From: Atractiella rhizophila
Taxonomy: Eukaryota
Direction: 5' to 3'
Assembly: GCA_021432655.1 (NCBI GenBank)
Contig: MU271204.1
Coordinates: 1 to 47,590 of the forward strand
Length of the DNA: 47,590 nt
A program made the translations under genes and the position numbers. Shown piece by piece: positions 1-34,790 of this stretch. Positions within the stretch are counted from its first letter, which is position 1. Each line of letters opens with the position of its first letter. The notes under the pieces were generated by a model. It did no database searches and was not told the DNA's origin. It worked only from the letters and a program-made list of their open reading frames with translations.

Positions 1-118
1 CCGCCCCCGTCCTCTTGGAGAGGATGAAGTGAACGGACGGGGTCAACGGGACGGGTATACCCCGCCCGTCACCCGTTGAGAGAAAAAAATCAACGGGTCG
101 GCACGGTGTCGAGCCCTA
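1..118 (+). mobile_element. 3' end (subterminal region and TIR) of an hAT-1 copy extending left of the window
   Basis: Reverse complement of 15060-15177 with 1 substitution seen. Ends in ACGGTGTCGAGCCCTA, carries CCCGT/ACGGG subterminal repeats and is followed by ATTAAGGC. Confidence 0.92.
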
Positions 119-129
119 ATTAAGGCTTC

Positions 130-543
130 TCAGTTTTCCACCTCTTTCTTCAACAGGAGATAAGCGATGTTACCCGCCTGCATCAAAACACCATCATCTG
201 CATCTCGGATCCACTGGAAATCTCTGTCTGGAGGTTCTGGTGGTGGATTTTGGCTTCGTGGAACTATAGGTGGCATAGAAGGACGAAAGGACGGAGTCTG
301 AGACACGTCATGCCGTTGCGTACGCTGTGATATGCTGCTGGGACGATGGACTGCTGTTGTCAGGTGTTCATAGGGGTCTATTTCGGATGCTAGTAACAGG
401 AAGTTAGGGAACCCATTCATATAGTTAGATAGGGATGCGTAATTGAAGTCTTCAACATCATTATATCCTTCACCATCAGACCAATGTATGAAACCAAGGT
501 CGGAATCTGAATCTGCAAAGTTGTAAGGACGCTTTGTAGCCAA
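130..543 (-). CDS. hypothetical protein exon(s), possibly the 5' part of a gene broken by the hAT insertion/inversion
   Basis: 137-aa ORF with Ser/Pro-rich composition, reading towards the hAT junction at 119-126. No recognisable domain. Confidence 0.3.
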   Translation of the reverse strand: MATKRPYNFADSDSDLGFIHWSDGEGYNDVEDFNYASLSNYMNGFPNFLLLASEIDPYEHLTTAVHRPSSISQRTQRHDVSQTPSFRPSMPPIVPRSQNPPPEPPDRDFQWIRDADDGVLMQAGNIAYLLLKKEVEN

Positions 544-2897
544 TTAAAAGTACGATGCTTTAGATTATTCCCGGTCTATAATATATGAGGGATGCCTTTG
601 TGGTGGTAAATATCACTAGGGAGTACATACGTGAAATAAATTTTCGAATCACAATTCGACCAGCTGTATGCCCTTCGCTTGCTTATCACAAAACTCTCCA
701 GGGCCCAGATGGCGGCAATTGGGTTCATGGAGCATATATCAAGGATGTTGTGGTGCTGGCGCCAATTAGTGTTGGAGCATCAATCCGTTTGTTTTCTCAA
801 CTTTTGCTAGGGTTTGCCACAGGTTTTGCCCACATCACTTGTAGTCTCTTTCTTCCTTCTGTCAGCAAAAGTGGAGTGCCCTCTGAAGGTTCGCGCTACT
901 TAGTTTGTTTGTTACCTCTCCTCTTCGTAAAAGTCGCATTTTTGATGCAATAGGCAATTCTAAATTTTCGAACGCTGTCATCCCCACGTAGCTGCCAGCA
1001 ATCGAAAGCGGCCGCAGTTGATAAAACAACGTCCTCATCGACAAGACGAGGTTGTCTCGAAGAAATGACTCGGCACACTCGGTCCGGGTTGTGATTTGAT
1101 GTTCACGACACAGTAGAGCAAGGATTTTCAAACCGGAGCGTGACTGTATCGGCCTCCTAGAAAGGGGGGCCATACATTTTAACCCAGTGGACCATTTAGT
1201 CATGGCAACAGACACGGCTCGAACATCTGGCCAATCCATTCCAACCTCCCCTCTTTCTCCTTCCCTTCCAAGTCAGTAAGGCATGGACACGGTCCACTGC
1301 GGCGGACACGCGGGTAACCGTCCCCAAGTCCAGACCGCCATCCGCCTCTGTCCTCGTAGACGGGGGCCCGTAGCCCCGCGCGAGGAACGGTGCAAGGAGG
1401 CGAGGAACGCACTGGGTTGGCATGAGGAGCAGCATTTAGCTAAGCCAAAATTCAATGAAGCAAAGCGGAAGATGGTTTGCTCTTGACTGTAAGCAAACGG
1501 ATATCCAATCCAGCGCTGCTTCAAAGTTAAGTGATGAGATTATTAGTGCGTGGGACGTTCGAGACTGCAAGGTGCGAGACCGTTCCGAAGCGAGTTGGTT
1601 ACAGGCGACAGGCGAGGGACGGCTAAAGCTGGTTTGGGGGATGTTGGAGGGCAGGTGAAACGGGAGGGTAAAGGTAGGTGAGAGAAAACCTACCGTGCTT
1701 CTGCGACGTCCATTCACAGTCCCAACCCGTGGTCTCACCTCCATCCTCTACTTTTGCGATCCGACGCCGAATTTTACTCGGCCTTCTTTCGGAGGGCACA
1801 GAAGTTGCTGGAAGAGCAGAGGATGATGGATGACGAGAGTAGCACGGAGGCGCGGAGAGAAGCATGCAGCATTGAGAGAAGCAGGTCGAGGGTTACAGGA
1901 AAGCGGGATAGGTCGGAAAGAGGTTATTGAGACTGATGCAAGACGGCGCTTACACGATGCTCCCGCTTCTCCTTTTGGCTGCCACGCTTCCCTCACACTG
2001 CTCTCTATCTCTTCGTAGAGCTAGCGGTGAAGGAAAGTCGGGAAGGTGGAAGGGTCGAGCAGTGCTGAGGCGGGCAGCAGGAGGAGAAGGGTGAGGGGTG
2101 GAGGAACCTAATACCCATCTCATTAAGCGCGGACGCGAAGAGGGACAGGGACTGGACGGTCACCTCTTCTCTCGTACATCTCTGCTTCCCTCCTCCCTTT
2201 CTATCTCTGTCACGCTTCGCGTTCCACTATCCACCATTTTGTTCGCAATACATCCTATCCCTTCCTTCTTCTTGCTGATTATCCTTGTCCACTCGTCACT
2301 TGTGCACACCGCTACCGACTCCATCACCAGTAGTCTAGGAGGGTATATCAGCAAAAGAGGACGGTGGAGGATAGCTGAGGCGAAATATACATTAAAGAGT
2401 TGGCGAGCTTGCGATACCCGTAATTACCTCCGTGTTAGCGCGTTCTATCCTTAAAACTCGGAGAGTGTTTCTCGCCTTATTTGCTAGTTGTCGAGCCCTT
2501 GCTCCATCACGTAACGTGCGCCTGGTCGAAGGATGTTCGGAACGATATGGAACCATTGCATCAAATTGCCATGCACAGACAACGGCTGAAAGAGGCTCCC
2601 TGTTGCAAAAAGTACTCGTACGGAAGGCAAGCACCGTAAGTGATACGTCCAAGAATGTATGGTTTTCATAAGCAGTCGAGTCGCGTGAAATGAAGCTTGG
2701 AGAACACCCTAAATACAGAGCGAGCCTTCTGCATCTAGATCGAAACTATCTTCCAACTACTTCCTTTTCCTTTCCTTCATTAATTAGCTGGCTTCGATCG
2801 ATGGTTGGATGGTTTCCTTTTGCTGTGACCACGTCGTTCATTGGGTTCATGTCATCCATTGATCATTGATTTCACAAATGTGTTATGGGCCTTGGTC

Positions 2898-4388
2898 TCC
2901 TGTCAAAAGTCCTTTCCGTCGTTTGTCGACATTTCCCGACCTTTTTACAACAATTTCCGTCCTGCTGGAATATGCAGGAAACACCGAAAATTATGGCCTG
3001 GGTTGCTGATTATTTCCTGTATTTTCGCGAAGCAGAAAACATATTGAGAATGTATAATAGAATTAAATCAAATGTATAGATTGTAAATAGCTGCATTTCC
3101 CTGTATTATCCTGCACCCCCTCCCCCCTCTTTCCTGGCCGTGCGCACCTCCTCCGTCATCAGATCCCCTGCAGGTACCTCTGAAACCCATCTTCCTAACT
3201 CTTCTACGCTTTTCCATACAAGTCTGTCTTGCAGCATATTATAACTGTCCCTCCGTCGTCGAGGGGACAATGACAGGAGTCGTGCTATGATCATGAAGTG
3301 ATGCGTTGAGGTCTTTGTATCGTTTGTTCCACATCTGAAACGGTTACTGGTAAGCGAATAGATTTGTGGGATAGTAACAATACCTCACCTGCTTTTCAGA
3401 TTGAGAAAGTCGCTTGTACTCCTCTTTCCAGTTCGGTTCCAAGATGTTGCTGCCATCAGCACGTTCCTTTTCCCATTGTTCGATTCGAGAGCGCCGATAC
3501 ATTTCACTGAACAATGCGGTCTGTTAGCCTCATGTGCCTTGAGACGAAGCTGGACCTGACCGCCCTCCTTGAATCCATACAATGTGACTCTTGGAGTAAA
3601 TACTTTAGTGCAGCATTAGACACAAGAGGGAGACGGACCGGGGCTTTCCTATGCAAGGTTGTTCTTAAGGTAGTATGCGACACTGACCGGTAGCCAAAGA
3701 ACCTGTTAAGTAATGAATCAGCATGCACATGCAAATTTCGTTTGATTGCCATTCACACGTACACCTTGGAACCATCAGATGGGCAGTAAAGCTGTCCTTC
3801 ATTCGGTTGATACGAGGGGTCGGATTGATGGGCTGACTTTGCTGGAAAGCTAAGGTGGAGGTGGAGTTAACAAGCCTTATAGACTGACGGACAGGGAGAC
3901 CTTGCGGAGATTGGCCAAGAGGAGGAAGATGGTAGAGGGAATCTGTCATCAAGTTGTTGGGGACTATACTATGTCATGAAAAGCCGTGCGATCGCTTTGC
4001 TGGAAGCTGCCACTAGAAGCGTGTTGGTTAGCAGTCCATTCCACATCGTGAATAGAAGAGACAACAAACCAGAAAGAATTGTAAAGCACCTTCTCTGCAC
4101 CCTAGGTTTTGCGCTGATCGCAATTGACGGTGACTGCTTCTTGAATATCCTCGAGAACTCGAGAAAGTGACTCAGAACTGAAAAATCAGAGTTCTGCGCG
4201 TCGTCTGCGACGTAGTATGACATTGAAAGGAAAGGGAAGGAAATTCCATCAATTTCCAGCTCAGCATGAGAAAATATTTCTTCACAGTTATCGGACTATG
4301 TGTATGCAGGAAAATGCGGGAACTTTGTCTGAATTTGCTGCGAAAAGCCAGGAATAAGGGAAAATGTCGGAAAGGACTTTTGACAGGG
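2898..4388 (-). mobile_element. non-autonomous TIR DNA transposon (1.49 kb) with 7-bp TSD; superfamily uncertain (KDZ/Zisupton-like is a guess)
   Basis: Perfect 20-bp inverted repeat CCTGTCAAAAGTCCTTTCCG at 2899-2918 and 4368-4387. Direct repeat CTTGGTC at 2891-2897 and 4389-4395. Contains spliceable minus-strand coding remnants. Confidence 0.85.
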
Positions 4389-4454
4389 CTTGGTCCCTCA
4401 GGCCCCCAACCCACTTGCAAGTGGCATGGCCACTTGAACCCTAATGTGACCATT

Positions 4455-4575
4455 GTAAGGGTTCGAGTCCGCTGCAAAACACTTTTTCTCACCGCTTCAA
4501 AATAAATTTCCTTGCAGCTTCAGAAAGGCGCAAAATATACAGTAAGATGGTGTAATTCATTTCATTTCAATGTGT
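4455..4575 (+). repeat. dispersed repeat with Pol III B-box-like motif
   Basis: GGGTTCGAGTCC at 4459-4470. Clearly homologous, in inverted orientation, to about 21997-22119 (shared blocks GGACTCGAACCCTT, CCTTTCTGAAnCTGCAAGGAAATTT, ATGAAATGnATTAnACCATC). Confidence 0.7.
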
Positions 4576-5035
4576 GTCGTTTTATGACTCATGCCAAGAA
4601 CTGATGAATAGACAGATGACTTATTAAGTTCTCTGTTCGGTTCCCCTAACACTATCCTGCCACCATGTAAACATCAAGCCCTAAAGCAACTCTATCCGAA
4701 CGCCACGACCACCAGTGAAACACTATCCCGTACCATTTCTTTTTCTGAGCGGTCAAGTCTAAAACAAATATTACGGCCAGTGGGGTCTGTGTAAACTCTC
4801 CTGGATTCTTTTTTATTCAGATCGTTCTGCGCCAGCCAATGCTGTCGAAAATACGATAAGTGGAACGTTAATGTATGAATCATGTGCAGCAAAAGCATGC
4901 ATTCGTCTGTATGTCATTTGTGTCGCTTGCGTCGCTCTTGAGCCAAGCTCTTTGACCAGCAGCGGGACCATAGTTGTCTACAATCCAACGTCACCGTCAC
5001 AGATCCGCAAAAGAAATGATTGGGAAAAAGGGAGG

Positions 5036-6217
5036 AATGATGGGAAAAAAGGGAGGGAAGTCCAGAGACTGTCCAACAATTCCGGCGCCAGGCCTTCTAA
5101 TCGAGGCACACGAAGTGCCACCTCAAGCTAGATCTCTCGATTGGGACAGCCCCTCCGAGGTCAAAACCACCCACACCCAATCCCCTGAAATCTATGACAA
5201 GTAAGATGGAGTCAGTTTCTGGTGTAAGTCCCTTGATTTTTGCACTTGACTTTTCAGCTCATCATCAGTGGAATCACAGAAAACAATGGTCGTTCCTTTT
5301 GGCGCGCTGTCCGCCCAACTCCACGAAACCTTTGACAATTCTGCACTTGCAAATGTCGTTTTTGAGGTAGGCGGAAGCAAAATCTATGCAATCAAGAGCA
5401 TCCTCTGCTTAGGCTCACCGTACTTTGCGACAAGTGCGTTGTTCATTGAATCTATTTGGTATTTCTGTTCTAGAAGCTGGGATGGTAGTGTTTGAAACAG
5501 AAACCTTTAGCGAAGGAAGCACAGCGACCGTTGGTTCGCCCACAGTAGTTGAAATTGGTGGCAGTCGTTATCGAACGTTCTATTGCATCCTATTCTTTCT
5601 ATATACTGGGTGCGTTCACAGCACTTCTATCACTAACCACGTAAATCGATTGATTTAGGCACATAAAATTCGCGAAACCTTTTGCATTCGATCAAGGGTA
5701 TGAAGATTATGAACGCAAACTTTCGGAACAAGATAACACTGAGTGAAACCTTGCGTCCTAAAGCAAAGAACGCAGATCCGCTCGAATGTTATGCTTTGGC
5801 ACACAGTAGATGTTTCAGCATTTCTTCCTTTTCATACGCTGATGTGATGGAAGGATACTCTTGTGAAGAGTTGAAAGATAAAGCCTTGACTGAGTTACCA
5901 GCACTTCTTGATGGAAACACATTTGATCTTGTCTTTACTCCTTACACCATCGCCTTTGAGCCCATTAGGTTGTGTCTTCTGAGGCATCTTCAGAAGAACA
6001 GTGTACGTAGCATGCATCTCGATGAAAATAGCTTTGATTTTTGCAGAACCAACTATGCGAAAACACATCCTTTCAGTAACTCCCTCTGCACCAACTCCTC
6101 ACGCTAGACATTGAAGTGCCAGCTTTCGATCTTGGTTTACTGTATGATGAAGCAGAGAAGGAAGAAATAGCGAAGAACATCTGGAAGGAGTTGGTGAAAT
6201 ATCTTCGTTGCTACTAA
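5036..6217 (+). CDS. BTB/POZ domain protein, multi-exon (possible premature stop near 6077)
   Basis: Motifs FDNSALANVVFEVGGSKIYAIKSILCLGSPYF, YRTFYCILFFLYTG and ECYALAH..Y..EELKDKAL, split by short GT-AG introns. Start and end are approximate. Confidence 0.8.
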
Positions 6218-6399
6218 GCTGCTTACTTCGAGGAAGTCAAGAAGCAATATGTTGAAACACAAGACAAAATGTGTAACCCATTCAGCTTTATGAAGAGTAG
6301 TGATATCGTCATTAGATCAGAAATCCAAGCATGTTTTCAAGCTTGACGAGTTTGAACCGAGTCTGACAATCCCTTTACTGGCCTAGCCCTTAAATTTAG

Positions 6400-8990
6400 C
6401 TTGCCGTCTTACAATCAAGATGGTAGAACTAAGTGGGAGAGAATCAAGGATACATGCATTCTGTTTTCACATACATTTCTTGTAACCCCCATCCAGGATT
6501 CAAAAGCCTTTCCTTCTCAACCTCTAAGCATCCAACTCCTTCTTCTTCCACATGGTAAAACAATAGCCAAAAGTCAACGTCCTACCACCGTAGTAGAACT
6601 GAAGGGGGAAAGCGGACCCATAGAAAGAAATGACCATGACTACATAACAAATTATCAGAATGAACAAATAACAAATTACAAGGTCCTTGCTATATAAAGC
6701 GATCTTGGAAGCCTAAAACCCCATTCAGTTCACGGCATAGGGGGCAAATTACAAGCTCCTGCTTGCACAAAGGGACCTTGGAAGGCGATCTAACAAAACA
6801 ACACAATGCATTTCTTGCCAAAAGGCAACAAGTTTGTTGTTTTTCTCTGCTGCTTTGTTAATCTCAAACAAATGTATTATGTTTGGCTGAGCTCTTGCAA
6901 ATGCATGAGCAGCAGAAACACAAGAACAGGTGTTTATATACATGAGAGCTTGTGGCAAATAGAAACTTCCAGAATGTTCATGAAGAAAGTATTACTAACA
7001 TTTTACACATCTCCAATAAAGTTGTAAGCTTCTTGTGGCACAAAGGGATACAAATGGATTGGCTCTGTTGTGCTGGGAGGAGGTTCGCAACTTCCAACCA
7101 CTGGAACAGTTACAGAGATCCCACTTTCTTGCTCATGTTCCTTTTTTTGCTCCTTGTTGCTTACAAGTTTCTCAGACCAGTTAATATGATGTGTTCCATA
7201 TTTGCCTAAAATGCTTCTCCAGATTGTAAGACAGCATAAGCATCACAACAATACCTCTCCCTTACTACCATCTCTAACTCTTCTACTGGCATGTCTGCCA
7301 CTTCAAGATAAGAAGATCCTGCCTCTTGGAATTCTGATAAATTAAGAAGCACCTACACTGTAAACCTGCACCCCAAGATTTGTGAACCTAAGCAAGTGCA
7401 GGAAAAGGAGGATGAAGAGGAGGAGGATAAGGTTGTAAAAGAAATAGAGGAAGGAGGAGCTGCAAATATAGAGGTGCCTTTAGAAGCCTTTAGGGAACAT
7501 AAACTACAAGGAGGGAGGACCCAATGGAGAATTTAGAACCATATAAACGAGAAGATTCCTGCAAACAATCCAGATTTATCGATGGAAAGCACTAGACATT
7601 TGCAGAAGATAAGAGTGTAGCTGAGGCTGAAGCTGAAGGGTTTGGATGAATAGGCATGAGTAAACCCCTGATAATTGACATTGATAGGCATACAAGATAG
7701 TCAAAAGAAACTGTTTTGAGTGGCTTGAATATTGTTACTGTAACCATGGAAGCCAACATCCCTCATATAACCCCACCACCACACAATGCATTGAAGCCTT
7801 CTCTTCAGACTGGCTGTAGGACATGACCCTATTCTATCATTGACTTTGAGCATTCCAGAATGCCTCTACCACTAGGAAACTGGCTTAACAATAAGATTAA
7901 AAGGAGGATGGAATGGCCTGCAGTCCATGCCCTCCTGTGTCAGTCGACAGATAGTCTGAAATGTGGATTTGAGCTATCAGGGTGACAAGAAATCTTTCCT
8001 AGTTGATATATAACTTGTACAATAAGTTTGAAATCCCCAAAGCTTTTCAGAATCAGGTGTATGAATGTTTATAATAGGATCATGAAGAAAGTACTCACGA
8101 AGAGTCAGTTGGATACAAATGGATGCAAGGTCTTGTAAAAAAAGAAAAAGTGGACTACCTCTGCCTCTTAGTGCAGAACCCAGTCTATGTTTCCAATGGT
8201 TCTGTAGATTCCATCATGTTTGCAATCTCCTCTCTGTGGCAGCAAGAAATGCTCAAAAGATACTGGAAGATGGTTAGATGGATTCCATGCATAATATGTT
8301 CTTCACATGGACTTGTCAGCAATCTACAGGATCAGAGAAGGGAGAGGGAAATGATCATCAAGACTAAGAAAACCTGTTCAAACCTATTCACCATCGTACC
8401 TTCAGTGTCCAATCATGAAATTTGCCTCCACACAACCCATCTGAGGCACGATCCCCTCTACCACAAGAAGAGAGAGCTGACACCATACTGCAAGAGACTA
8501 GTCTGACAGCTCCAGTTCTAGTGCATCCAGACTCAATAAACAATATCCAAGCACCAGCTATACCCCTCACAGATCCAATTATACCCCCAGAAACATCACT
8601 AACATGCTCACCTGCAAGTGTCACAGCTTCTCCATCTGCATCGGGCTCAGACCTCAGAGAGACCCAGGTCAGTTACCTGTGGCAATATACATGATTCAAC
8701 AAACTTCCTCTCCATCATCGGTTGATTCAAATCTATCAGCATACTGCCCTATAAGGATTTTGGGATCACATACTTCCAAACCACTCATGGTTTTGGAGGG
8801 CATGCTCTTGCAAGGCTTAGGCAAGAGCCTGTACCCTCCACCAGTTGTTGCCCATCGATTTTTTGATGGGACCTGTGGGTTTTATTTTTGACCTATAACA
8901 AGAACTGTTGGATTTTAGAAGAGGAGATAGTATTTGCTCAGGTCGCCTACCCAAGGGTGGAGATATGTTAGCTCCAACTTCACAACTTGC
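6400..8990 (+). mobile_element. heavily decayed, probably Gypsy-type LTR retrotransposon remnant
   Basis: Strong CpG depletion and no long intact ORF. A degenerate zinc-knuckle-like YRWKAL(G)H(F)AED near 7577-7610 needs two frameshifts. Purine tracts AGAAGAGGAGATAG (about 8917) and AAGGGTGGAGATA-TGTT (about 8953) resemble a PPT/LTR start. No clean RT motif was readable. Confidence 0.35.
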
Positions 8991-9350
8991 ATCGAGATCC
9001 AGGAGCGGCTATTGCAGCTCTCTCGCCTACGATGACTCCCGTTCGGATAATTGATTTGCTTCCGTAACGGAGTCATGTTGATCCCTTACGAGCAGAAAAA
9101 AAGAGTAGGGGGAATGTGTCACGCAAAACCTTTAAAGTGCCTCTCTCCTCCTTCCGAAGGCTGCAGCCAAGTACCGACGAGCACCTCTAACTATCACTCA
9201 GATCCTTCACCACTTTTCGCCCCTGCGATCGCGGCTCATTCCGTCAGTCAGTTAAAGTTCAATCGAAGTCTCGTTCATCACGTCCTAATTGCACATCCAG
9301 TCACCCGAGTGATTTATCTTTGTTTGAATGGTAACGATCGGAGGAAAGGA

Positions 9351-11322
9351 TTAAAATAGCGCGATAAAGCATGAGAAAGTGTAAATGATATCACTATCGT
9401 TGTTCGGCGCACGGGCCATTTGCCCATCCCTCCTAAATACAACTCCACAGCCCTGACAAACGTTCCCATCTTCAGCAGCAGCAGAATCCGTGGCGGTGGC
9501 ATTTAAGGCGGCGGAAAAGACGAGCGCGCCAACGGAAACAAACGTGGGATCCTTCCTCGTCAGGACAGCGGAAAGACAGCATGAAACTGGAGAGTCGCAG
9601 TAGTGTGCATGCGGAGAAAAAATAATAAAACCAACGTCGCTTGAGGTGCCGTCGTGGGTTGAGGTTGACGAGAAGGTAGATATGACAGATAAGGGTATGA
9701 CAGATAAGGGTGAACGGCAACCAACCCTGTTCACCACTGCGCGGACGTTAATTTGAGAATAACGACACCACGGGCAACAAACACTCACTACCAATGCGGA
9801 GGAAGGATTCCAAGCGCGTACTTCATAAACATGTAGGACAACCCTGCTACGATGATTACAGTTGCCTGAAGAGCTCCGCAAAAGCATATCCTCCGCATTT
9901 GCTCCATACTTCCTTCCTCCAATCTCTCTCTGAAATCACGAAAATACGTGTCACGAGGATCGGGGACCCACCACAGTACTCCACCTTGCCCAAAAGTTCA
10001 GTTTCCTAGCTTTCATCGTCTTTAAAAACGACTCACCTGGGACGACCTTTCGTACAAAGTCCATGAGGTCGATAAAATAGAAAGTGGACTGCATTCCTAC
10101 AACCCAGAGGAGTAACGCGCGACAGACCCAAGTCCCGGTCAGGAACCCGTTCTGTAAGGCAGGCAACGTAGCGAGGCATACAAGGGCTCCCTGGAAGAAG
10201 GGAAAGATCAGGAGATCGATCATCAAAAAGAAAGCCAGCTTCACGACAGGCTTGAACGAATCTCGAACGACCTGTTTCGCGTATTCGCGCATTGTAGAAC
10301 GAGAGTACCGCAGAAAAAGAAAGGCGAGGGAGAGAAGAAATGCGTAGCCAATAATGGTGAATACGGCGCGGTCAAAGGCGATGGCTCCAGTTGGAAGAGC
10401 GCAATACATCGTGGACACCGTGGAGATGACTTGGTGGATGGAAGCGAGGAGAGTTTGAACATGCAAGAAAAGAGAAGAAGCTGATGGATGCCGATTGTCG
10501 GATGCATGGCCAACGATAAATTTTGTTGATTCCGCATTATTTGCAAATAAAGGGGAAAAGGGTCGAGTGTTCGGTTTCGAGCGGAGTCGGATTCGATGGA
10601 AACACCAGAGCGAAAACGGTGGCGGGGATCCAGCTGACAGCGCGGGGAGGAGCCAATATCCATTTCGCTTTGATGGAAACGATGGCGCGCCTTATGGCAT
10701 GAGGCAGAACGATGGTGATGAGCATCAGCCGCGCAAACTTCAAGGTCACAAGCACAAGATTTCGGCGGAGGGGTTTGAAGCCCCTGAAGCCCAGCGTCAA
10801 GGATCCAATCAAAGGCGGCGTTAATGGTATCAAGTTCGAAATCTTGTTCCTCGACAGCTCCCGCAAGGTGAGGCAATTTAATATTATCGCGTCCACCGGC
10901 GGCGCAGCGGGGCGGGTAACACTGGACGACTTCTCTTGATGCAACGGCTCAACATGCACCTTCTCCGCGATAATTACGGGGGGAGGTGCGACTGCCCCAA
11001 CAGGTGGACCAGCAATGTTGGCGTTCTCCGTGATTCGGATTAACGACCATTGGAGGAGTATCCACCATTTGTAGAGGAAGGCGACGGCGAACGTCAAGAG
11101 GATAATCCGACCTTACTCGACATCGGACATCAGGGTGTCTGTATCGACAGAAAGCCAAGCGGCTGGCACTGAGTCCTGAGCATTGTCGGGAGAAAGGAAG
11201 GAGTTGACGAGTGGAAAGAATGGCGACTTTTCATCCGGGTTGATATCGTGTGTGGCCTGGTCGAGGGAGGTGAACACGTGACCAATGGTGGGACATTTCA
11301 ACGCCGCTTTGATTCTAACCAC
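9351..11322 (-). CDS. Doa10/MARCH6-like multi-pass membrane protein (TD-domain region), divergent, multi-exon
   Basis: VVKLAFFLMIDLLIFPFFQG...LLWVVGMQSTFYF...VRKVVPG|VLWWVPDPRD resembles the Doa10/Ssm4 KVAFF..IEL..FP...G / W..G / RPGVLWFIRDP signature. DRAVFTIIGY lies upstream. Gene limits are uncertain. Confidence 0.65.
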
Positions 11323-12995
11323 CGTGCGGCAAGCTCATGTGAGATCATCGATTCTGATGTGGATTACGGTATTGCATGGGTTTTGCGCCGGTTTTATATC
11401 CAGCTGTAGGGAGGGTGAGCCAGAGCTGGTTGATGGCCGTTCTTTGAAGCGCCATTTAAAGGCGAGTTCGCTTCTTGTAAGCGCCTCAGACGGAGACGCC
11501 TCACGTGTAGGGCATCAAAACAGGAGCGTGGTATTCCTAAAACGCTTGGCCGTTCACCCACCTCCCTTGGGCAGTTGGGCTGACGTGGTGCGGCTCCGTC
11601 GAACCAGATGGTTCCAGCAACATCGATCGATGGCCCTGAGGCGAGACTGGCCCTCTGGAATCCGGTCAGCGCAGCTCCTCAAAACCGCGAACTTCTGTTT
11701 AAGGACGCATCTGCCCGCATCTTCTATTAAACACTGCAAGGATTTCATTCTCCATAAACGCCAACCTGACAATAGAATGTGACAAAGCAAAAGGCGCTGA
11801 TAGCGCTAGCGTGCCATGCAATAGCAATGACAAAAGAACAGGGACACGTGTAGCCCTCGCTCCGATGACCGCAATCCCAACCCTCACCTAAACATGCGAC
11901 GCACCTCAGCTGCTAAAGTGACTCTCCTTGGCTCTTTCCTTCCTTAAGATTTGAATTGGCCGCGAACAGCCTGGTTGAGTTAGCCGGACGCTGAGAACGG
12001 TAAAAAAAAATCGAGACCGGACAGTTGGGCCAAAATTCAAAATGAGGAGGCAAATGAGGTTTAAAAGCAAAGTGCACCTTGCCATCCCCAAACACTATTT
12101 AAGACCTGTCGGATCCAGCAAGGTGAGATAAATAAGATATGGAGTGCCTGAGCCAACCTTGGAAGACTAGCAGCCATCAAGCAATGGGCCCCCATGTACC
12201 AACGGGGCTAAGTGTGAGTCATGCGAACGGCTTGAAGCTGAAAAGGTTCAATTTCCTTTGCTAACCAAAGAGTTGATTTGCATATTTCAACGCGGGTTTA
12301 AGCCTCTCAGCTCCCTCGGCCGAATATTACACCCCTTATCATTGCTGGCAACTATGTCAGATAGGTCGACAACCACTAACCCGCTCTCGCGGCTGAAGTC
12401 AGTCAAGACGCAGAGTCCTGGACTACGAGTTCTAAGGAGTGCTCAGGTAGTGATGAGTTAGGATTGGTTCTTGGGAAGAGTTTGTATCATGAAGCTGTTG
12501 ATTCGTCTCAACGTATGCAGCAATGAAGGTAACATGGTGATGAAAATGCGAGATAAGATCGCGGACTATCTCGTACAAATCCTGCGTGATGCAGAAATCG
12601 GGAGAAAAATTAAAGACTGTTACGACGTTTGCTAGGTTACGAACATGAACATTCCGACAGTGCATTGGCGAAGGGTGGTAACCCTCTACTACTAAGGCAG
12701 CAAGGGTTACATACGGACAAAGGGTTCGGAACGCTCAGACCTTAAGCATAGAGCGTTGAACCGGGGCAAATAGTTCCGCCGAGATCATGGTCATCAGCAA
12801 GCGACGGCCACGGTGACATCAAACTTGGTACGGTTAGGTGTGTAGCATCGAGAACGTGTTGAAAATCTCTCACGCTTGCGTCGAAGGGGAGCTCCTGATT
12901 GGGCTTCGGTAGTTCGATGAGCGGGAAGAAGGGAGATGCAACATGTCAGCGTTTTCGTTTTTGAGAAAGGCAAAGTGGGTTGATGTGGTGGAACG

Positions 12996-13195
12996 ATCAC
13001 TTAAAGGTGCCAATCCCTTCGTAACAATTTCCTTGGGTCAGTATTTTTGTTGTATCATACTAATTATCATTATCATTATAATAATAATATGTTATCTAAA
13101 TAATCACTTAACGGTGCCAATTTCTCCGTAACAATTTCCTTGGTTAGTATTTTTGTTATATTATACCAATCATAATAATAAATCATTAATGATGC
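12996..13195. repeat. AT-rich degenerate tandem repeat, period about 107 bp
   Basis: ATCACTTAAnGGTGCCAAT...CGTAACAATTTCCTTGG..AGTATTTTTGTT occurs at about 12997 and 13103, with (ATT/ATA)n runs between. Confidence 0.8.
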
Positions 13196-13485
13196 ATATA
13201 TCCATATCCAAATGGCAGTCAATCTTGGTCATTGTCTGTCGACTACTGGCCTCAGCTTCATGCAGACGCATTCCATTCGGATGTATCGACTGCAAACAGG
13301 GATTGAGACGGTTGAAGGCAATTGGAGGGAGTGTGTTGACATGAGGAGACAGGATAACGCGAAGGCAAAGAGATGGTTTTCTGCGCCTTATGTGATGAGC
13401 TGTTGATGCGGTGTTGTGACAGGGTTAACTTGGTCTTTGCACAGGCGGGGTTTCGTTCATGGAAAATGGGTCAGGTGAGGAGGCG

Positions 13486-14312
13486 TTAGGAGGGGGGGTT
13501 TGGTAAAATAAAAGGAGGAGAAATTGGACGGTTAGGGATTTGTTTGAAAGGCAGTAGGAAAGGGTTGTTGACAGAATGCATGCATGTAGGACGTAGCAGA
13601 AAGTTGAAGGGTAGGATAGAGGACATTCGCTGTCTCTTTACTCCGAACGTTTGAAGGAGGAAGGAACCAGCAAAAGGAAGGTTTGCATACACGATACACA
13701 GTAATATAGGCGGAGCAAGGAATCGAAAGAAAAGGGTTTCTGTGACGGTGCAAAGAGGTACATCGCGAAAATTGGAGAGGGTCATGAGCAGTTGTTAGAA
13801 TCAAAACGTGAAAGGCGAGGAGGACGATAACGCATACAATAGATTTGTATTGATGAGGTTCATTGAAGGAAAGGAAAGGGTTGGCTAGAGCCTGAACGTT
13901 GAAAATTAGGTACTGAAGGAGTGGGAACAGAGGAAAACGGACCATCTTGATTCTGAGTTTCCATTTCGCGAAGGATTTCAGCTGTGCGCTTAACAATATC
14001 ACCGTCAGGCAAGGCTTCGGTGCTTGACGGATCGAGGAAGAAAGCTTTGAGATTATCCCAGGTCAAGAGTTGGATTCTTCCGGCGGAAGATGCGGGATAG
14101 ACATAAACACCTTCGGGAGCAATAGAAATGGTAGAGGTGTCTTTGAGGTTATTATGAGTAAAGGAAGGGGAGGAAGGAGGAGTTGCGTACGTAAGTGAGC
14201 GGTATCCATGTTATAAATGTTTGAGATGGGGCAGAGACAGGTCGGGTAGGTGCCCTGAGAAGGAGAGGAAGAGAGGAGAGGTTCGGATGGCTTAAAAAGA
14301 GGGGGTTTGGAT
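13486..14312 (-). pseudogene. hypothetical multi-exon gene abutted or 5'-truncated by an hAT end at 14313
   Basis: Overlapping minus-strand ORFs with GT-AG intron-like gaps (e.g. GRIQLLTWDNLKAFFLDP). The upstream reading frame runs into the TIR. No recognised domain. Confidence 0.3.
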
Positions 14313-14576
14313 TAGGGCTCGACACCGTGCTGACCCGTTGATTTTTTTCTCTCAACGGGTGACGGGCGGGGTACACCCGTCCCGTTGACCCCGTCCGTTC
14401 ACTTCATCCTCTCCAAGAGGACGGGGGCGGGATGGCATACGGTTAGCCAAAACGGGTCACCAGACGGTTTATTCGGTTCAACGGTCCAATCATTATTCTA
14501 ACTCAGCCATGTAATATAACATCATCACGTACTCTCCACGTATCCTCAATTAAGAATCTCAATCACTTCCACTTGT
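14313..14576 (-). mobile_element. solo 3' end (264 bp) of hAT-1
   Basis: Direct repeat of 15060-15323 with 1 substitution seen. Begins with the TIR TAGGGCTCGACACCGT. Confidence 0.95.
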
Positions 14577-15059
14577 AAGTCGCTGAGGCGTACTTGTTTG
14601 TTTTGAAGTGCAAGTATGTGACTGGGACTAGAATTGAGGTCGATGGTGGTTACAGGCTGGCGTAATATCGCTATGAAATGAAACTTTGATCAATTGGGAT
14701 ATCCATTGTGTGCAGCAGGAATGAGATATAGATTGGGCAATGGCGGCGGCCTATTACCAGCGACATTCGGGAGCAGCAGTTTCTACTACTACTATACAGC
14801 TACAGCTCTTTCTGGCTGCAGCGCCGTGAATCAAGAGCACAAACTCACACTCCACTATGGCCCAAGGAAGGGAAAGAAATCATGTGGGGGATTTAGAACA
14901 CACACTATTTTCAACCAAACTGAGACCAAAAGATGGAAATACTGTGCACAAAGCTCTACCCATATCTCCCAGAAGCTCCAATATTGCAATCCGTTTCTTT
15001 TCGTTTGGCTTCCTTGAACGATCGACCCTCAAGGGGCCCTGTTTACCAGCCGTCATCGT

Positions 15060-18000
15060 TAGGGCTCGACACCGTGCCGACCCGTTGATTTTTTTCTCTC
15101 AACGGGTGACGGGCGGGGTACACCCGTCCCGTTGACCCCGTCCGTTCACTTCATCCTCTCCAAGAGGACGGGGGCGGGATGGCATACGGTTAGCCAAAAC
15201 GGGTCACCAGACGGTTTATTCGGTTCAACGGTCCAATCATTATTCTAACTCAGCCATGTAATATAACATCATCACGTACTCTCCACGTATCCTCAATTAA
15301 GAATCTCAATCACTTCCACTTGTGGTCTAGTCAATGACAATAGGCATTGGGACATCCTGAGGCATGCGAAAAAGCCACTCCAAGCCTCCTTTCATCTTTC
15401 CATCATGTCTCCACCATGCTCGTAAGAGCATCAACTTGCGAACAGTTTCTGCTTTCAGTGAAGCACGACGCAAGGAGATGACATCCCGTCCAGAGGAAAA
15501 TACGCGTTCGATGGCAACAGAGGAAGCTACCAAGATGATCAGTGATCTGAGTACAACATTAACTAAGTTGTGAGCACGTACCTGGAACGCTCAACACGTC
15601 CCTGGCCAAAGGAGCCAATGCAGCAAATTTTCCGCTCTGGGCTTGCTTCTTCCACCAGAGCATCACATCAACCTGAGCATCCTTAACACAGTCTTCCGAA
15701 TCCACCTCTTCCTTAGCACTCAAGTAATTCCAGTACCGTTCCAGAGGATGCAAATGTGAAGAATTGCTGACCTTGCGAGCGTTGGGGAAGAGACGTGCGT
15801 TGAGTTTCTCCACAGCGGTCATGGGTTTTGAGGAAGCTGCAACTTCGGTAGACACTGGAGTGGAGGAGGCAGGTGTTGATGGTGGGGGAGTGACGAGTGC
15901 ATACTCAAGATCGAACTTGAGTTTGAGGCTCGACTTTGCTCGCTCAATGGCCCAAGGATCAAGACCACGAGCTGTGTCTTCCAAGGTCGTAGGACCCATG
16001 CGAGGATCCAGTACTGAAGTAAAGAGGCTAAATCAGTGATGGAACATAATTGGAAGTATAGACGTACAGATTGCCCAGTAGTACCATGGATATTCATCAG
16101 TCTTCGAGAAGTACTTGGCTAATTTCTCATGTGCCTTCATCAAGCCGACCTTGACAACTGGGGCAGTGGTGCCAGGCAGCTTGGCCACCGCTTGCTCGAG
16201 CTTCTCAAACAGCTGGATAAATAGCAAAACAACACTACTGACCGTGACACAGGAGGTGCTAGACATCAAGGCAGTGATGTCAGCAAACTCCTCCAACCAT
16301 GTCGCAACAAGTTCAATTGCAGCCCAATCTTCTTCCAACAAGCAGACACCTTTGAGTTCTTTCACTTGGATTACTGAGAAATCATCTACAGCCCGCCGAA
16401 AAGCCAGCGCTCTCTTGAGCATGAAACAAGTCGAGGACCAGCGTGTTCGAACATCGAGAAGTAAGACTTTTTCCTTCTCCTCCAGCACTGGCATCGCCGT
16501 ACCAACACATCGAAACCACCATTCCTTTTTCTGAGGAGACGACCTAGCGCACTTGACAATGACACGGAGCTAGAATGCCAATATGAGTTCATTAGCCCCT
16601 TTTATAATGAGAAAGTGAGACAGCAGGCTTACCCGTTGAATGGCAGTTCCGATGTCTGTATTACTCTCAGAACTAGGAACATCATCATCCAGCGCCTCGC
16701 TCCCACCCTCTTCAGGTTCCGATGTGTCATCTTCATCGTGGGCAGTCGTAAGATTCTCGACGGTACTCTGGTACGGTTCCCACATGCCATCATTACTGGT
16801 CCCTTCCTCGACAAGACCTGGAGGTAAAGGTTGGCTCGTTGGGGCCATACCGAGAGCATTCAGATCTTTCGGTTTTCCAGAGGCTGGAGTTGTGGAGGCT
16901 GTGGGTTTGTTCTTTGGCCATGCGCCAATCGAATTGAGCAGTTCAATAGCGGAGAGATGAATGATGTGTGGAAGGCATCTTCCTCTACACTCGTTTGCTG
17001 GGAAGGTGATGCCGTCCTTCTTGAATAGTGACTCTAGCTCTTGCATCATCGTATCGTTGGAACTGGCATTGTCAGACATGATGACAGAAATCTATGCACA
17101 CTTGAGAATGCTGAACAACTTTTAGAATATACATACCTTTTCCAATATCCTTAATTTTGTGAGAACATCATAAACTGCCTTTGCGAGCTTCTTCCCACTA
17201 TGCTTTCCGTGCACTTCAACAAAGTCCAACAGATCCGTATTGAGATTCCAGTTTGCGTCGACAGGATGGCCGCAGATCGCAAGAAAGCTTGAATTGGTGC
17301 TGGCAGTCCAAAGGTCAAGTGAGATGGCAAACTTGCATTCAAAATGCTATGTATGATGCACATCATCAGCCAGAGCATGCAACAAATGAACGTGAACAGA
17401 GTGAGAACACACCTCATAATATTGCACAAGGTTTTCTTGGAGATTGTCGAAGTACTCAGCGGTCAAACGTCGCATGGTTGTCGAAGTGGGAACATCTAAT
17501 TGAGAGCCATGAACGTAACTAAGCAGGTCCCGCAATTCCCGGCATTCAACCTCAGTAAATGGTTGAGCGCTGACTGAGAGCCAGCGGGTGAGCAGATACT
17601 TCAGCTTTTCTGGATTGACATCCTGCAATCCCCCATCAGCTTTCTTACTCTACCGAATGATAAAACGAACCTCATTGCTTTTCCGGTTAAATGTCAATCC
17701 ATTGGCTATGGAGTGACCTTGCATCCACAAGCGAATACTTCCTGGAGCTGGCACATCTCCATCATCTGACCTTGACTCTCCTCGCAAAGACTTATACTCG
17801 GGATATGTCAATTCCTTCTTGGCGAATCTGATATCGGCATCATTCAGGTCGTCGCCAGCTGCGGTACTCATAAGTCGTCTAAGGGCTTTATTGACCTGCT
17901 GTCCATGCTTGTTGTGCAGATGATTGATCAACGAGTCGTAATTGTACTTGCTTTCCATTGTTTGGCGGAAGTAGAGGTTGCATCAGCGACATTGAAAGAC

Positions 18001-19785
18001 ACGATCACTGGGAACGACGGGCCGATTGCTGAAAGTGGCTTTTGGAATGGTGGAGTGATCCTTAACAAGGTGGTAGAAGAACTTGCAGGTTGCTTTCCCA
18101 CGAGGTTCATTGTTGTGAACTCTCTAATCCTGGTGTCAAAACTGGCACTGCTGAAAAAAAGCGACTGCTACGTGCCTTCCACTTGGGCTCAGAGACATTT
18201 GGTCCCTGCTCATCATCATCGGTTGTTTCCTTGTTTGTCATCATCAGCATCTTATCTGTGTGAATAGTCAAGTCAGAAAGACAAACCACTTGCGCCCCTC
18301 CCGGTACCTTTCTCTTCTTCTGTTTCTTCTTCTCTTTTTTCTTCTGGGCTCGTGTCTTCCCCGTCACGGTTCCATCTTCCTTCCTCCTCTCCTTCATCGC
18401 ATCCGCCATTGCCTGATTCAACTCTCTCGCATCCTCCTCCGATGCTGATGTTGAAGACTCGGCTCCCTCTCCCCCTTCATCTTCACACATGAAATCTGAG
18501 TCAATTTTTCCTTCCTCAAACTCCTCCAGTTCCCCGACTTTAATCAGAAGCTTGACAATAGTAGCGCCGGCTTTGCTGAGATATCGAAGTCGTTCGACAG
18601 TTACTGACGGGAACAGGGTGTACTGCTTTCGGGTCTCAAACCAAAGCTTGACGAATGATGTAATCCCTGCTGCACCACCTATGCCAGACTGATCCAGCTT
18701 TTGTACCGAAAATTGGACAAACTCATCGTCCTCGTCCAGAGGTTGACAGTCATCAGCAGTAGTTGAGATTACAAGGGAGATGAGGTGCAGGGAACTCAGT
18801 GCCAACGTGGAGTTTGTGTTCTGGAGGTGCTTAAGTTAATCGAAGAACGTGAAATTAGAAAGAGACAAACCGAGTTGGCGTTGAGACTCTTAGTAAGAGA
18901 CTGGCTTTGCGAAAGTAGGTATCGTGTCGCATGGTATCCGCTCTCCTTTGCCTGTTTCAATAACCTGTAGGCGAACATGGTCAGTTAACAGATGAAAATG
19001 GAAAGGAAGAAGGCGTACAACTCGTGTAACTCTTTCTTCTGCGCTTTTTCCGACAGAGAGGTTCCGTCTTCGTTGTTCTTGCGAGCCATGTCGACAGGTT
19101 TCTTCATTCTGTTGCTTCTTCGACTGTGAGGTTCCATTGGATCCATGACAGGCATGCAGGAGCAGTTTCTACTCTGAGGAAGGAAACGGAAAAGGTCGAC
19201 ACCTTTTAAGAGATTCTACTATCCTTGCATTGCCCAAACTTGATGTAACATGCTTCTCGGACACGGTCCTCCTCACTGCCAGATTTACAAAGAGAAAGCA
19301 AGTGATACTCATCAGAAATTCCACAAAACACATCACAGAATGTCCATCACTTCTCGGATCTGGCATCTTCATTCTCTTCCATCCTAAATTTCCAATCTCA
19401 TACGACTCCTTCAGGTCAGAATCCATTTCTTTGGGGAGAGCGCTGGTTTGAGAGGCAAAAGCGGAACGAGGAGACGAATGCATCATAGGTGTGGATCAAG
19501 CGTTGGAATGTGAGATCAACCGTTATTGTCCTGCTGAAACTTCCATCGTCAGGAATTTGTCATTCCAGGCAAGGCATCCCACATACCTGGCCATCCCTAC
19601 CCCGTTCACTCACCCGTGACTTGTACATCTTCGAATCGGACCGGAGCCATGCGGTCTCCACCCGTCCGCTGGAACCGTCCGAGGAAGAAAATCAAAAAGC
19701 CATAACGGGGTCGGATCGGGACGTTGTTTCGGAGCCGTCCACCGTATGCCGTCACCCGTTTCCAACGGGACGGTGTCGAGCCCTA
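15060..19785 (-). mobile_element. full-length hAT DNA transposon (hAT-1), 4726 bp
   Basis: TIRs TAGGGCTCGACACCGT (16 bp perfect, 19/20) at 15060 and 19785. Many CCCGT/ACGGG subterminal repeats and an internal hAT transposase. The flanks GTCATCGT and GCCTTAAT do not match each other. Confidence 0.95.
15327..19155 (-). pseudogene. hAT transposase, multi-exon, with an in-frame stop in the BED finger
   Basis: BED finger FQCR*CNLYF...LINHLHNKH; D1 ISLDLWT; D2 MSDNASSND; CLPH (CxxH); DVRTRWSST; dimerisation domain WWK...LARDVLSVP..SSVAIERVFS. TGA at 17983-17985. Confidence 0.88.
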
Positions 19786-19793
19786 GCCTTAAT

Positions 19794-20980
19794 GAGTCTC
19801 TTCAGTATGTGTTTTGTTTTCATTTCGCCATGGGTAACAAGAAAGCGAACAATTTCCAGGTTGGCTGTCTGCAATCTTTCCATAAACGTTGCGCCACAAA
19901 ACAGACCTCAGCCCACTGCTCCCTCGCGTACGGTGTCGTGGTGCTTGAGACCAAGTTTCCCGAATTGACCCAGTGCGAAGGACATGCAATGGCCGATCAT
20001 CTCTTTGGTGAAAGCAGACATCGTCAATTAGAACGTTTTAGGTCCGGTATTAGACGTCGCGAGAAGCGTCCGAAAGTAGAAGAAGCTACTGGGAACGGAG
20101 ACGTCACGTCAGGAGCCACAACCAGTATCCCACAGAATCAGGTCTCAATTCCGCCTGTAAAAGCACACGAGCGGAACAAGAACCAACTTCTCGCTGTAGA
20201 GAGGATCAAGAAGCAAGGAGCAGATTCACGCACAATGGTCGTCATTTTCATCTGATACCACTCCAGACTAATATTCCGGCAGGTTTGTTGATGTTCCTAT
20301 ACCGATAGACCCTGCAATTGCAAGTTGCCACCATCTCCTTCAAAGGTGTGTTGTTTGCTTTGCAATGCAGACTCAAGTGGCCACGCTCACTGCAGTGATT
20401 GGCTGTGATTACGACGTGCTGCAGGTACAGTGACTTCCACTTCTGCTAAACATGTGCCGCTGGGCAATGTGGAATATGCCACCACTGTGACCCATCACCA
20501 ACTGCCTGTTGAAGAAGTTAGCATGGCAACAGATTCCATGAAGAAAGCAGGGGTTGGAACATTCTGTTTCGATAGTGGTAAGTATGTTTCTGATTTACAC
20601 AGGAATATAGCTAACCGTATTTACTTGAGCTTTACAATCGAGTGTAGACTGTGACCCTCCTGTCCAAGCCAACGGTTCAGCCCACGCTTCGCCTCCCTTG
20701 GATCCCTCAAATTCGACTAACCTCACTCAACTTACGATTGCCGAGGATAACTTCAATCTCACAGGAGCATCTGAGAGAAGCCACAGTAATTCTTCCTGGT
20801 ACAGAATGTCATGAGGCTGACCATAGGAAAGCTTCAGATGCTACGACGAATCCGCCACGTTCATCTCATGCAACAGACGTCCCAGTTTCCCTCATCAACA
20901 TACACCATGCACCTGCTGGGACCACGGATATCGCTACAGAAGCAGCGGTGCGCCTGCTTGATAGCGGAGAGTGTCGCTAA
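19794..20980 (+). CDS. hypothetical multi-exon gene lacking its own 5' end (starts at the hAT flank)
   Basis: ORF ...VVVLETKFPELTQCEGHAMADHLF... followed by further exon-like ORFs (20430-20578, 20651-20980) separated by GT-AG gaps. Confidence 0.35.
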
Positions 20981-21069
20981 TGAAAGGAATAGGCGCTGGC
21001 AGGAATGCGGGAGAGCACCGTCGATGGCACTCCGTCTGGTCAGATGCTCCTTTAATGCAAATTCTCGTT

Positions 21070-21978
21070 AACTCACCAACACATTAAAGCAAAAGGCAAC
21101 ATTTCAGGGTCTGCATGACCCTTTGCCGAGGAGACGGTGCGACCACCTCGTACGTTTGGGAAGACCATGGCAGTCAACAACGGTGGGTCATCTTTCACAG
21201 TAAGCACTGTCCACATACTACGTGTTAAGTGTGTCTGAAAGTTGCTAGGCATCTTGTGCACTTCATATTGAGTCTACCCCTGTACCAAAAGGAGGGACAA
21301 ACAAGCGGATCCTAGGTGGAAGCTGTGTCAGCAGTGCAGTATGGCATAAACTCATAACTAATGTACACATTTGTCATTTCATGGTGATGCAGGGAGATGT
21401 ACAAACGGTTCCGTATGCAACAGTACGAGCAAGAGCATGCTGCAGGCAACATGGTGGCAGAACTGGATTTAAAAAGGAATACACACTTCTTTCGGCGACT
21501 AAGAAAGCTGTTTGTCTGTCTGTCTTGTATGTCCTCTGCTGATTGCCAATTGTTTTAGGGCTGGAATAGGCGTTGGAAAGAGCAATCAGAAGCTGTCAAG
21601 GTCACGGTGAGGGATTCTACTAACTCAACTTTAACGGTAGATTGATTGTATCTGTGTAGAGCTGGAAAGGAGGGTCATGCGCAGACGGGTAGAATAGTGG
21701 AGCAGGGAGGGGAGAAGCGGGTGCCGGGGGAGGGCTTGGAACTTGGGAAGGAGGAGGGGAAGGAGGCATGGATTGATGAGAAATCAGGCAAACCGAAGGA
21801 AATAATGGAAATTCCTATTTTTTGCGCGAATCACCTTGTCACTTGTGCTGGAAAAAAACGCCAAAAAACGTAACCCAACCCATATATTCTGTGTTTTCCT
21901 GCTAGACGGAAAAGATGGAAAAAGCTAGGGGAAAATCGCAAAAACAAGGAAAATGGCCAGAAAGGATTTTTTACGGGG
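21070..21978 (-). mobile_element. truncated relative of the 2898-4388 TIR family (single terminus)
   Basis: The terminus CAGAAAGGATTTTTTACGGGG (about 21958-21978) resembles CGGAAAGGACTTTTGACAGGG (4368-4388), with similar GGAAAA-rich subterminal DNA. Cys-rich remnant MKCTRCLATFRHT*HVVCGQC near 21200-21270 on the minus strand. Left limit is a guess. Confidence 0.45.
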
Positions 21979-28264: not shown

Positions 28265-28573
28265 ATGTCGAGGTCATCCTCTGCTGTGGATAACCTGCAA
28301 ACTTCCCTATCCAAAGACGACCCCTTCAGGAAGGATAATGCGATCCTTAGGGAAAGAGTGAGCAGTCTCGAGGATGACGTCGTCACGCTCAAGGAGAAGA
28401 CTTCTCAGCTCACAGCTGAAGTAGTCACGCTCAAGGAGAAGAATTCTCAGCTCACGGCTGTAGTCGTCACGCTCACGGGTAGAATGGAGAACCTGGAGCG
28501 CCAATTGCAGCTAGTCTTTCAAAGGACCAGTGGCGGTTCGGGTAGTCAGAATACGCTGATCCTGCTAGTCTAG
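28265..28573 (+). CDS. small coiled-coil protein or exon with a 14-aa repeat
   Basis: ORF with VVTLKEKTSQLTAE/VVTLKEKNSQLTAV, encoded by a 42-bp tandem unit at 28379-28475. Heptad Leu/Val pattern. Confidence 0.45.
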   Translation: MSRSSSAVDNLQTSLSKDDPFRKDNAILRERVSSLEDDVVTLKEKTSQLTAEVVTLKEKNSQLTAVVVTLTGRMENLERQLQLVFQRTSGGSGSQNTLILLV

Positions 28574-34455: not shown

Positions 34456-34790
34456 AGTAAACGTGGCATTTGATTCTAAGCATTGGCCCAAGACATCGAC
34501 GTTCCCAACTTATAATGGACTCTCTACGTCAGATCATAGAGATTTTCTGAGGATTTGTCTTTGAGTAATATCAGGGTTAAGAGACCGTGATAAACGAACA
34601 TATTCGTTAATCCATCGGGAAGGATCCTGGAAACTTGTCATAGGTAGCGCATGCGCGATGGAAGCAGTGGAGATTTATTGGAAGCTCCAAGAAGAGGCCG
34701 AGAGAACCAAGGACCCCACAGTGCGCCATTTCCTATAGAGAACTTGCTTCACGGTATTCCTATCCAAATGGAAATGGAGGTTTTACCTTC

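Follow-up and report, generated by a model that had tools for sequence, protein, structure and literature searches.

Does the start of contig MU271204.1 of Atractiella rhizophila record an inversion made by a transposon, or two transposon copies that were assembled in the wrong order? The window analysed here is the whole stretch of 47,590 nucleotides that opens this contig (C25 in our numbering; assembly GCA_021432655.1, 51.5 Mb in 1998 contigs, with the contig of rank 200 measuring 78 kb), and base 1 of the window is base 1 of the contig. It contains three pieces of one transposon family of the hAT superfamily (Table 1): the cut 3′ end with which the contig begins (copy A), a full-length element in the opposite orientation (copy B), and a short 3′-end fragment between the two (copy C). 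A preliminary description of the locus, correct in all the letters and coordinates that it named, took the 8-mers beside copies A and B for the two halves of one target-site duplication (TSD) and concluded that the DNA between them had been flipped in vivo. Our analysis bears out the first claim and does not support the second as stated: no read contig spans the element, which is collapsed in the assembly, and we consider an in vivo inversion of 119–15059 unproven and a mis-join by the assembler somewhat the more probable explanation. Two facts were absent from the earlier account, namely that the window starts at a contig end and that 14577–15059 is an exact copy of sequence on another contig, C407.

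One target-site duplication split between two copies

Copy B ends in perfect terminal inverted repeats (TIRs; 16 of 16 terminal bases), which begin TAGGG, in line with the hAT terminal consensus, and it carries on its minus strand a spliced transposase gene of more than 1000 codons. One of the seven transposase open reading frame (ORF) pieces matches PF05699, the C-terminal hAT dimerisation domain (26.4 bits against a cut-off of 21.4, E 6e-6), and candidate CxxH and RW motifs of the RNase H-like DDE core were picked out by eye in the spliced translation. Exactly 8 bases were duplicated at insertion. With short TIRs, an 8-bp TSD and PF05699, the element is a hAT transposon. It shares these features, together with a spliced transposase and several young copies, with other members of the superfamily, e.g., maize Ac/Ds and the fungal MarorhAT-10 (PMC9674265); it differs in belonging to an unnamed family and in the in-frame stop of the assembled copy.

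As assembled, the flanks of copy B are unlike (GTCATCGT at 15052–15059 versus GCCTTAAT at 19786–19793), and ATTAAGGC at 119–126, next to copy A, is the reverse complement of GCCTTAAT. An 8-mer match of this kind is expected by chance at about 2e-5 per flank pair, or 5e-5 across the three 3′ flanks. The sequences beyond the two 8-mers, 119–690 and 19794–21941, are two parts of a single dispersed repeat, which is colinear on contigs C2 and C128 and 90–95% identical there to the window. These paralogous sites are empty and carry the 8-mer once, exactly on C2 and in 7 of 8 letters on C128. In addition, a 243-letter contig from the reads of run X3 joins the reverse complement of 119–239 (0 differences) to 19860–19970 (2 differences) with 11 letters between, which fits the empty allele minus the intron at 19805–19859; X3 holds only 0.07 of the words, at a depth of 2–10, and was used solely for this bridging contig (its record 17, depth 2.4), which adds no more than a third instance of the empty site. 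Since the 8-mer stands once at empty sites with colinear flanks, 119–126 and 19786–19793 are the halves of one 8-bp hAT TSD, and a chance match is rejected by the empty sites and by its probability. The target repeat is multi-copy and intron-bearing, and had no Pfam match in the two pieces tried.

Table 1. Features of the locus, in window coordinates (TIR, terminal inverted repeat; TSD, target-site duplication)
Feature	Position	Strand	Remarks
hAT copy A, 3′ end cut by contig start	1–118	+	TIR 103–118; one private base at 57
TSD half ATTAAGGC	119–126	+	present once in empty sites
Left part of multi-copy target repeat	119–690	-	paralogues on C128 and C2, 90–92%
Segment flipped if the inversion is real	119–15059	.	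whole interval from one long copy to the other
GTTTGGAT, predicted TSD of the composite	14305–14312	+	left of copy C
hAT copy C, 264-bp 3′-end fragment	14313–14576	-	one private base at 14331
Captured block	14577–15059	+	483/483 identical to C407:8772–9254; ends in GTCATCGT
hAT copy B, full length	15060–19785	-	4726 bp; TIRs 15060–15075 and 19770–19785; PF05699
In-frame TGA	17983–17985	-	inside zinc-finger-like CxxC of assembled transposase
TSD other half GCCTTAAT	19786–19793	+	right flank of copy B
Right part of target repeat	19794–21941	+	colinear with C2 at 93%
GT..AG intron in target repeat	19805–19859		skipped in empty-site read contig

A related hAT family, about 68% identical, has the same terminal 10–15 bases (loci L003, L004, L006, L009, L010, L014, L015 and L022), and the two families might therefore mobilise each other's ends. 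Used as a control for TSDs, it gave no matching flank pair among 9 ends, and its sole two-ended copy has unlike flanks; this family is too decayed to inform on TSDs.

A putative composite insertion with a captured flank

The sturdier and better-supported feature of the locus is not the inversion but the unit at 14313–19785, which looks like a composite insertion, i.e., a 264-bp 3′ end, a captured flank and then the full element with one premature stop. It is of a known kind, with a putative matching TSD. The source of the flank, C407:8772–9254, comprises the last codons of a gene that, judged by eye from its translation, is short-chain-dehydrogenase-like, together with downstream DNA. Because the exact copy ends at 15059, GTCATCGT is the flank that travelled with the element; it is best read as a captured donor flank, the probable mark of a former insertion site, and not as a partner in an inversion. 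The donor site on C407 has neither element nor duplication and is colinear with a paralogue on C86 across the site. An excision footprint there was considered and dropped, as the C86 paralogue has the same remnant-like bases.

As read from the assembly, the block meets fragment C bluntly at 14576/14577, with 0 bp of microhomology and no filler, a type of joint that mis-joining of repeats cannot produce. Contigs of read runs X1 and X2, both at single-copy depth, cross the junction 14312/14313 and reach 49 and 47 letters into the element, and a diverged paralogue on C3 runs past this position without the element; when its continuation served as query, the first 250 bases past the junction matched only C3 itself among the best 40 of 73 candidates. 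The composite termini face outward as assembled (3′ TIR at 14313, 5′ TIR at 19785). Its outer flanks differ as assembled, the right one being the disputed join, and a partner of GTTTGGAT was found at none of the 30 loci checked, out of 31 matches. A TIR match near GTTTGGAT on contig C65 lacks subterminal similarity and was treated as chance.

The unit has much in common with the Composite Insertions of maize, which, according to PMC4270019, are likewise bounded by 3′ and 5′ termini, hold an element plus duplicated donor flank, have arms joined without homology and leave the donor flank still present elsewhere. Here, transposon termini bound the unit, the duplicated donor flank abuts a 3′ TIR and the internal joint is blunt. 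Whereas the maize insertions start from two reversed-end elements and have matching TSDs, one donor copy would suffice in our case, and the unit of 5.5 kb has a matching TSD that is putative. As its matching TSD is putative, 14313–19785 is described as resembling a maize-type Composite Insertion and not as a proven one. Single-copy Pack-TIRs, as presented in PMC8277862, are similar in that non-transposon DNA is copied between transposon ends while the source stays. Their filler, however, replaces internal element sequence and microhomology is usual (67.6%), so that a Pack-TIR made by gap filling was rejected for this locus, where the joint is free of microhomology and the filler lies outside a complete internal 3′ end, as its flank.

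The composite may have arisen from a copy at the C407 site, the ends of which would have been used in one aberrant, replication-coupled transposition, followed by ligation of the broken arms. Presumably, the 5′ end of one sister chromatid and the 3′ end of the other were inserted at the GTTTGGAT site. Replication would have covered 264 bp of one arm and, in the other, the entire element and a further 483 bp before it aborted; ligation of the two ends would have followed. The same product would result from gap repair with a template switch to the C407 copy and synthesis beyond the element end, and the two courses are inseparable here. A standard local hop would then have put a copy 14.2 kb away in the opposite orientation, unless the two events took place in the reverse order. 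Such a unit would represent a hAT element copying host DNA that flanks its donor to a new site while the donor remains intact, which is one way in which segmental duplications may arise.

No full transposase can be made from the assembled body, since one TGA splits the frame into 242 and 774 codons; at this position, both of the two related-family copies encode Arg. Of the seven intron skips listed for run X4, which was taken as RNA on the strength of these skips, our transposase model removes six, and it adds two inferred introns; the sequence at the seventh skip was kept because its removal breaks the frame. On 15060–18820, X4 yields a spliced transposase contig of 4134 letters that runs 379 letters beyond the 3′ TIR, and this flank matches none of the three 3′ flanks in the window. 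The hAT family is thus transcribed from another copy.

Inversion or mis-join

Several features of the assembly bear on whether the segment was flipped. The contig begins 118 bp inside copy A, and three 3′ ends stand in the assembly against a single element body and a single 5′ end. Searching with the 5′ 400 bp gave five matches, one of them near-identical, and the terminal 10-mer gave 69, of which 14 were already known and none of the other 55 is an element end; no second 5′ end or lacking flank was found in the assembly searches. Read-contig depth over the body (three listed contigs) is 3.4–4.3 times the baseline in X1 and 3.6–3.8 times in X2, the baseline being the mean of four difference-free contigs inside 119–14361 (86 in X1 and 137 in X2), with one contig per run, in the multi-copy element at 2898–4388, left out. 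One X1 contig stops exactly at the 5′ TIR in a branch-like manner and, over 928 letters, shows 19 letter differences and 10 gaps against the window; together with the foreign 3′ flank in X4, it points to hidden copies. With the element copies collapsed, an intact left copy and a mis-join give the same junctions as a true flip. Relative to the main path of X2, 12 of 2516 letters of the assembled body differ in 16373–18938 and 0 of 831 in 15065–15895, so that the body looks mosaic, which agrees with a mis-join or a crossover and less well with a single event between sister copies. Scans of Joint Genome Institute (JGI) metagenomes returned 0 matches to the flank motif and 0 to the 5′-end motif.

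On balance, we lean slightly toward two ordinary neighbouring insertions of a young hAT family of roughly four copies, mis-joined by the assembler. One hAT copy inserted into the dispersed repeat and duplicated the 8-mer now seen at 119–126 and 19786–19793. This copy would still be intact, with matching TSDs, to the left of base 119, where its own 5′ part and the DNA from 19786 onward would belong. The composite unit lies about 14.2 kb away in the opposite orientation, with its 264-bp 3′ end, blunt joint and 483 bp of C407 flank, and would continue into a long copy of its own. The assembler would have collapsed the near-identical bodies, entering through the 3′ end of the composite and leaving through the 5′ end of the other copy, and the contig would have stopped where the body was needed again. 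Mis-assembly across identical repeats, which the preliminary description had named as the case that would undo its inversion, is thus the reading to which we give a modest preference, unproven as it is.

A number of observations weigh against a mis-join. The join runs through the element without a gap or N, although assemblers commonly break at a repeat of 4.7 kb unless linking data are supplied. The same contig was also assembled through a 1.9-kb tandem duplication that includes an identical stretch of 1046 bp, and some long-range information may therefore lie behind the assembly. By the exit taken, the path arrives at the TSD partner of a copy that lies on the same contig, which a random choice would hit about 1 time in 4. 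A real crossover would likewise leave a mosaic body, and the second 5′ junction that a mis-join predicts, beside GTTTGGAT, was found at none of the 30 loci checked, out of 31 matches. Furthermore, the joints 14576/14577 and 15059/15060 are absent from the read pieces listed, X1 and X2 come from one sample, possibly the source of the assembly itself, and read-contig depth does not equal copy number.

The weights that we assign to the alternatives and to the mis-join are judgements, not computed values. An inversion by ectopic recombination appears unlikely. After the same two insertions, a crossover between the two inverted 4.7-kb bodies would have flipped 119–15059 with an exchange of the 5′ flanks, so that ATCCAAAC would now adjoin the 5′ end of the left copy; such a flip would be reversible. 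Long inverted copies, about 99.5% identical and 15 kb apart, are a plausible substrate for such a crossover, the assembly is gap-free in this order, the split TSD is proven, the body looks mosaic, and PMC8225341 gives exactly such non-identical TSDs for inversions by recombination. Nevertheless, the left copy is visible for 118 bp only, neither a second 5′ end nor its flank was found in the assembly, and, with the element collapsed, the set of junctions is that of a mis-join, so that nothing supports a crossover specifically. The preliminary description had predicted either ACGATGAC or ATCCAAAC beside the left copy; ACGATGAC is ruled out as the end of the 483-bp block copied from C407, and ATCCAAAC, the sole remaining prediction, stands beside a 5′ end at none of the 30 loci checked, out of 31 matches. 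A recombination event limited to copy A and the short fragment C was rejected by reasoning, as it would not place GCCTTAAT on the 5′ end of copy B. Still less likely, in our estimation, is an inversion by alternative transposition, in which the 3′ and 5′ ends of sister chromatids, or of two direct copies, would have been inserted together at the 8-mer 14 kb away, splitting the TSD and inverting the segment in one step and, in the sister-chromatid case, adding the second copy too. The 3′ and 5′ ends on inverted TSD halves are the signature of maize Ac inversions in PMC8225341, although a mis-join leaves the same pattern, and a hAT-linked inversion with loss of a middle segment is recorded for the basidiomycete Marasmius oreades in PMC9674265. 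In addition, the composite resembles an Ac/fAc substrate in having two direct 3′ ends beside one 5′ end, and the family is transcribed and spliced in X4. Against this stand the same assembly ambiguity and the shift of the body from divergent to identical (12/2516 versus 0/831), the latter being weak evidence, as the differences may be clustered. Standard local hops are also commoner than alternative transposition.

A wider tangle strikes us as improbable. It supposes that the 483-bp block is an exact two-copy repeat at which entries and exits were mispaired, with the long copy belonging at C407 and fragment C running into the right arm of C407, which would amount to a translocation-like rearrangement and not a local composite. 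The block is identical in two places (483/483) and no listed read piece spans it; however, 483 bp is within the reach of paired reads, an extra rearrangement is needed, and C407 is colinear with its C86 paralogue across the site. Equally improbable, in our view, is a natural chain of events in the style of Ac/Ds, in which a re-replication composite, from a single element, would have captured the 483 bp and a sister-chromatid or reversed-ends event would then have inverted 15 kb and split the TSD. If this is true, the maize p1 rearrangement series would have a natural counterpart in a basidiomycete, in a species that retains a transcribed transposase.

According to PMC8225341, inversions at Ac/fAc that arise from reversed ends differ at their TSDs from those that arise by recombination, and the window fits either class. 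The maize inversions are alike in that 3′ and 5′ ends abut inverted halves of one 8-bp TSD, but both breakpoints were sequenced there against a known progenitor, whereas one breakpoint here is the contig end. False inversions in assemblies, between reverse-complement repeats (10.1101/2022.07.06.499059), provide a further parallel: long inverted repeats bracket a segment whose orientation reads cannot fix, although those cases concern finished bacterial genomes and only one repeat body is assembled here. The locus carries a caution: with a split TSD at a contig end as the sole evidence, an inversion and a mis-join cannot be told apart. If real, the inversion would join other transposon-bounded inversions, here in a repeat-rich region; the kind is known from maize and has been seen at a mushroom hAT. 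Given the one hAT-linked inversion that PMC9674265 describes in Marasmius oreades, it would not be the first at a fungal hAT. Alternative transposition has been studied in maize, snapdragon and Drosophila, as stated in PMC12312487. In searches of open-access papers for composite insertion or alternative transposition in fungi, we found no description of such copying of donor-flanking DNA in this group. Aberrant transposition by impala has reportedly been described in Fusarium.

Genes and repeats elsewhere in the window

The segment 119–15059 is mostly a mosaic of dispersed repeats, and no allelic contig across the whole of it was found among the best 40 of 126 and the best 40 of 386 candidates. 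Two genes had been named within it. The BTB label holds, with a PF00651 match of 23.6 bits against a cut-off of 20.5, whereas none of the five ORF pieces tried at 9354–11112, labelled Doa10-like, has a Pfam match. At 6835–7016 lies a very high-copy repeat of about 180 bp, with a binned depth of 5,400–14,400 versus about 90–140 for unique DNA; one copy of it adjoins an older hAT fragment on contig C103. The segment also contains, at 2898–4388, a non-autonomous TIR element of 1.49 kb, whose inverted arms measure 26 bp and whose 7-bp TSD is intact (2891–2897 and 4389–4395). Its halves recur at 97–99% identity, separated by about 5 kb on C187 and by 17 kb on C1, and the element looks like an internal-deletion derivative.

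The tandem duplication mentioned above occupies 23798–27609, in units of 1906 bp that are 99.6% identical, within a second hAT-like element whose paralogue on C128 has one unit. Comparable tandem pairs of 2–3 kb are present on C30, C57, C129 and C41 and may either be common in this genome or reflect a habit of the assembly. Chance 10-mer matches were often paired across contigs at 97–99.9% identity (9 of 10 cross-contig pairs aligned), which suggests extensive recent segmental duplication or two haplotypes. Farther to the right, a 704-codon open frame at 34644–36758 contains a DDE_1 domain (PF03184, E 2e-12) and likely encodes a transposase of the Tc1/mariner-pogo type, and a fungal Zn2Cys6 transcription-factor domain (PF00172) is found at 41765–42211. 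Finally, 28367–28478 comprises three tandem units of 42 bp within a short coiled-coil-like frame.

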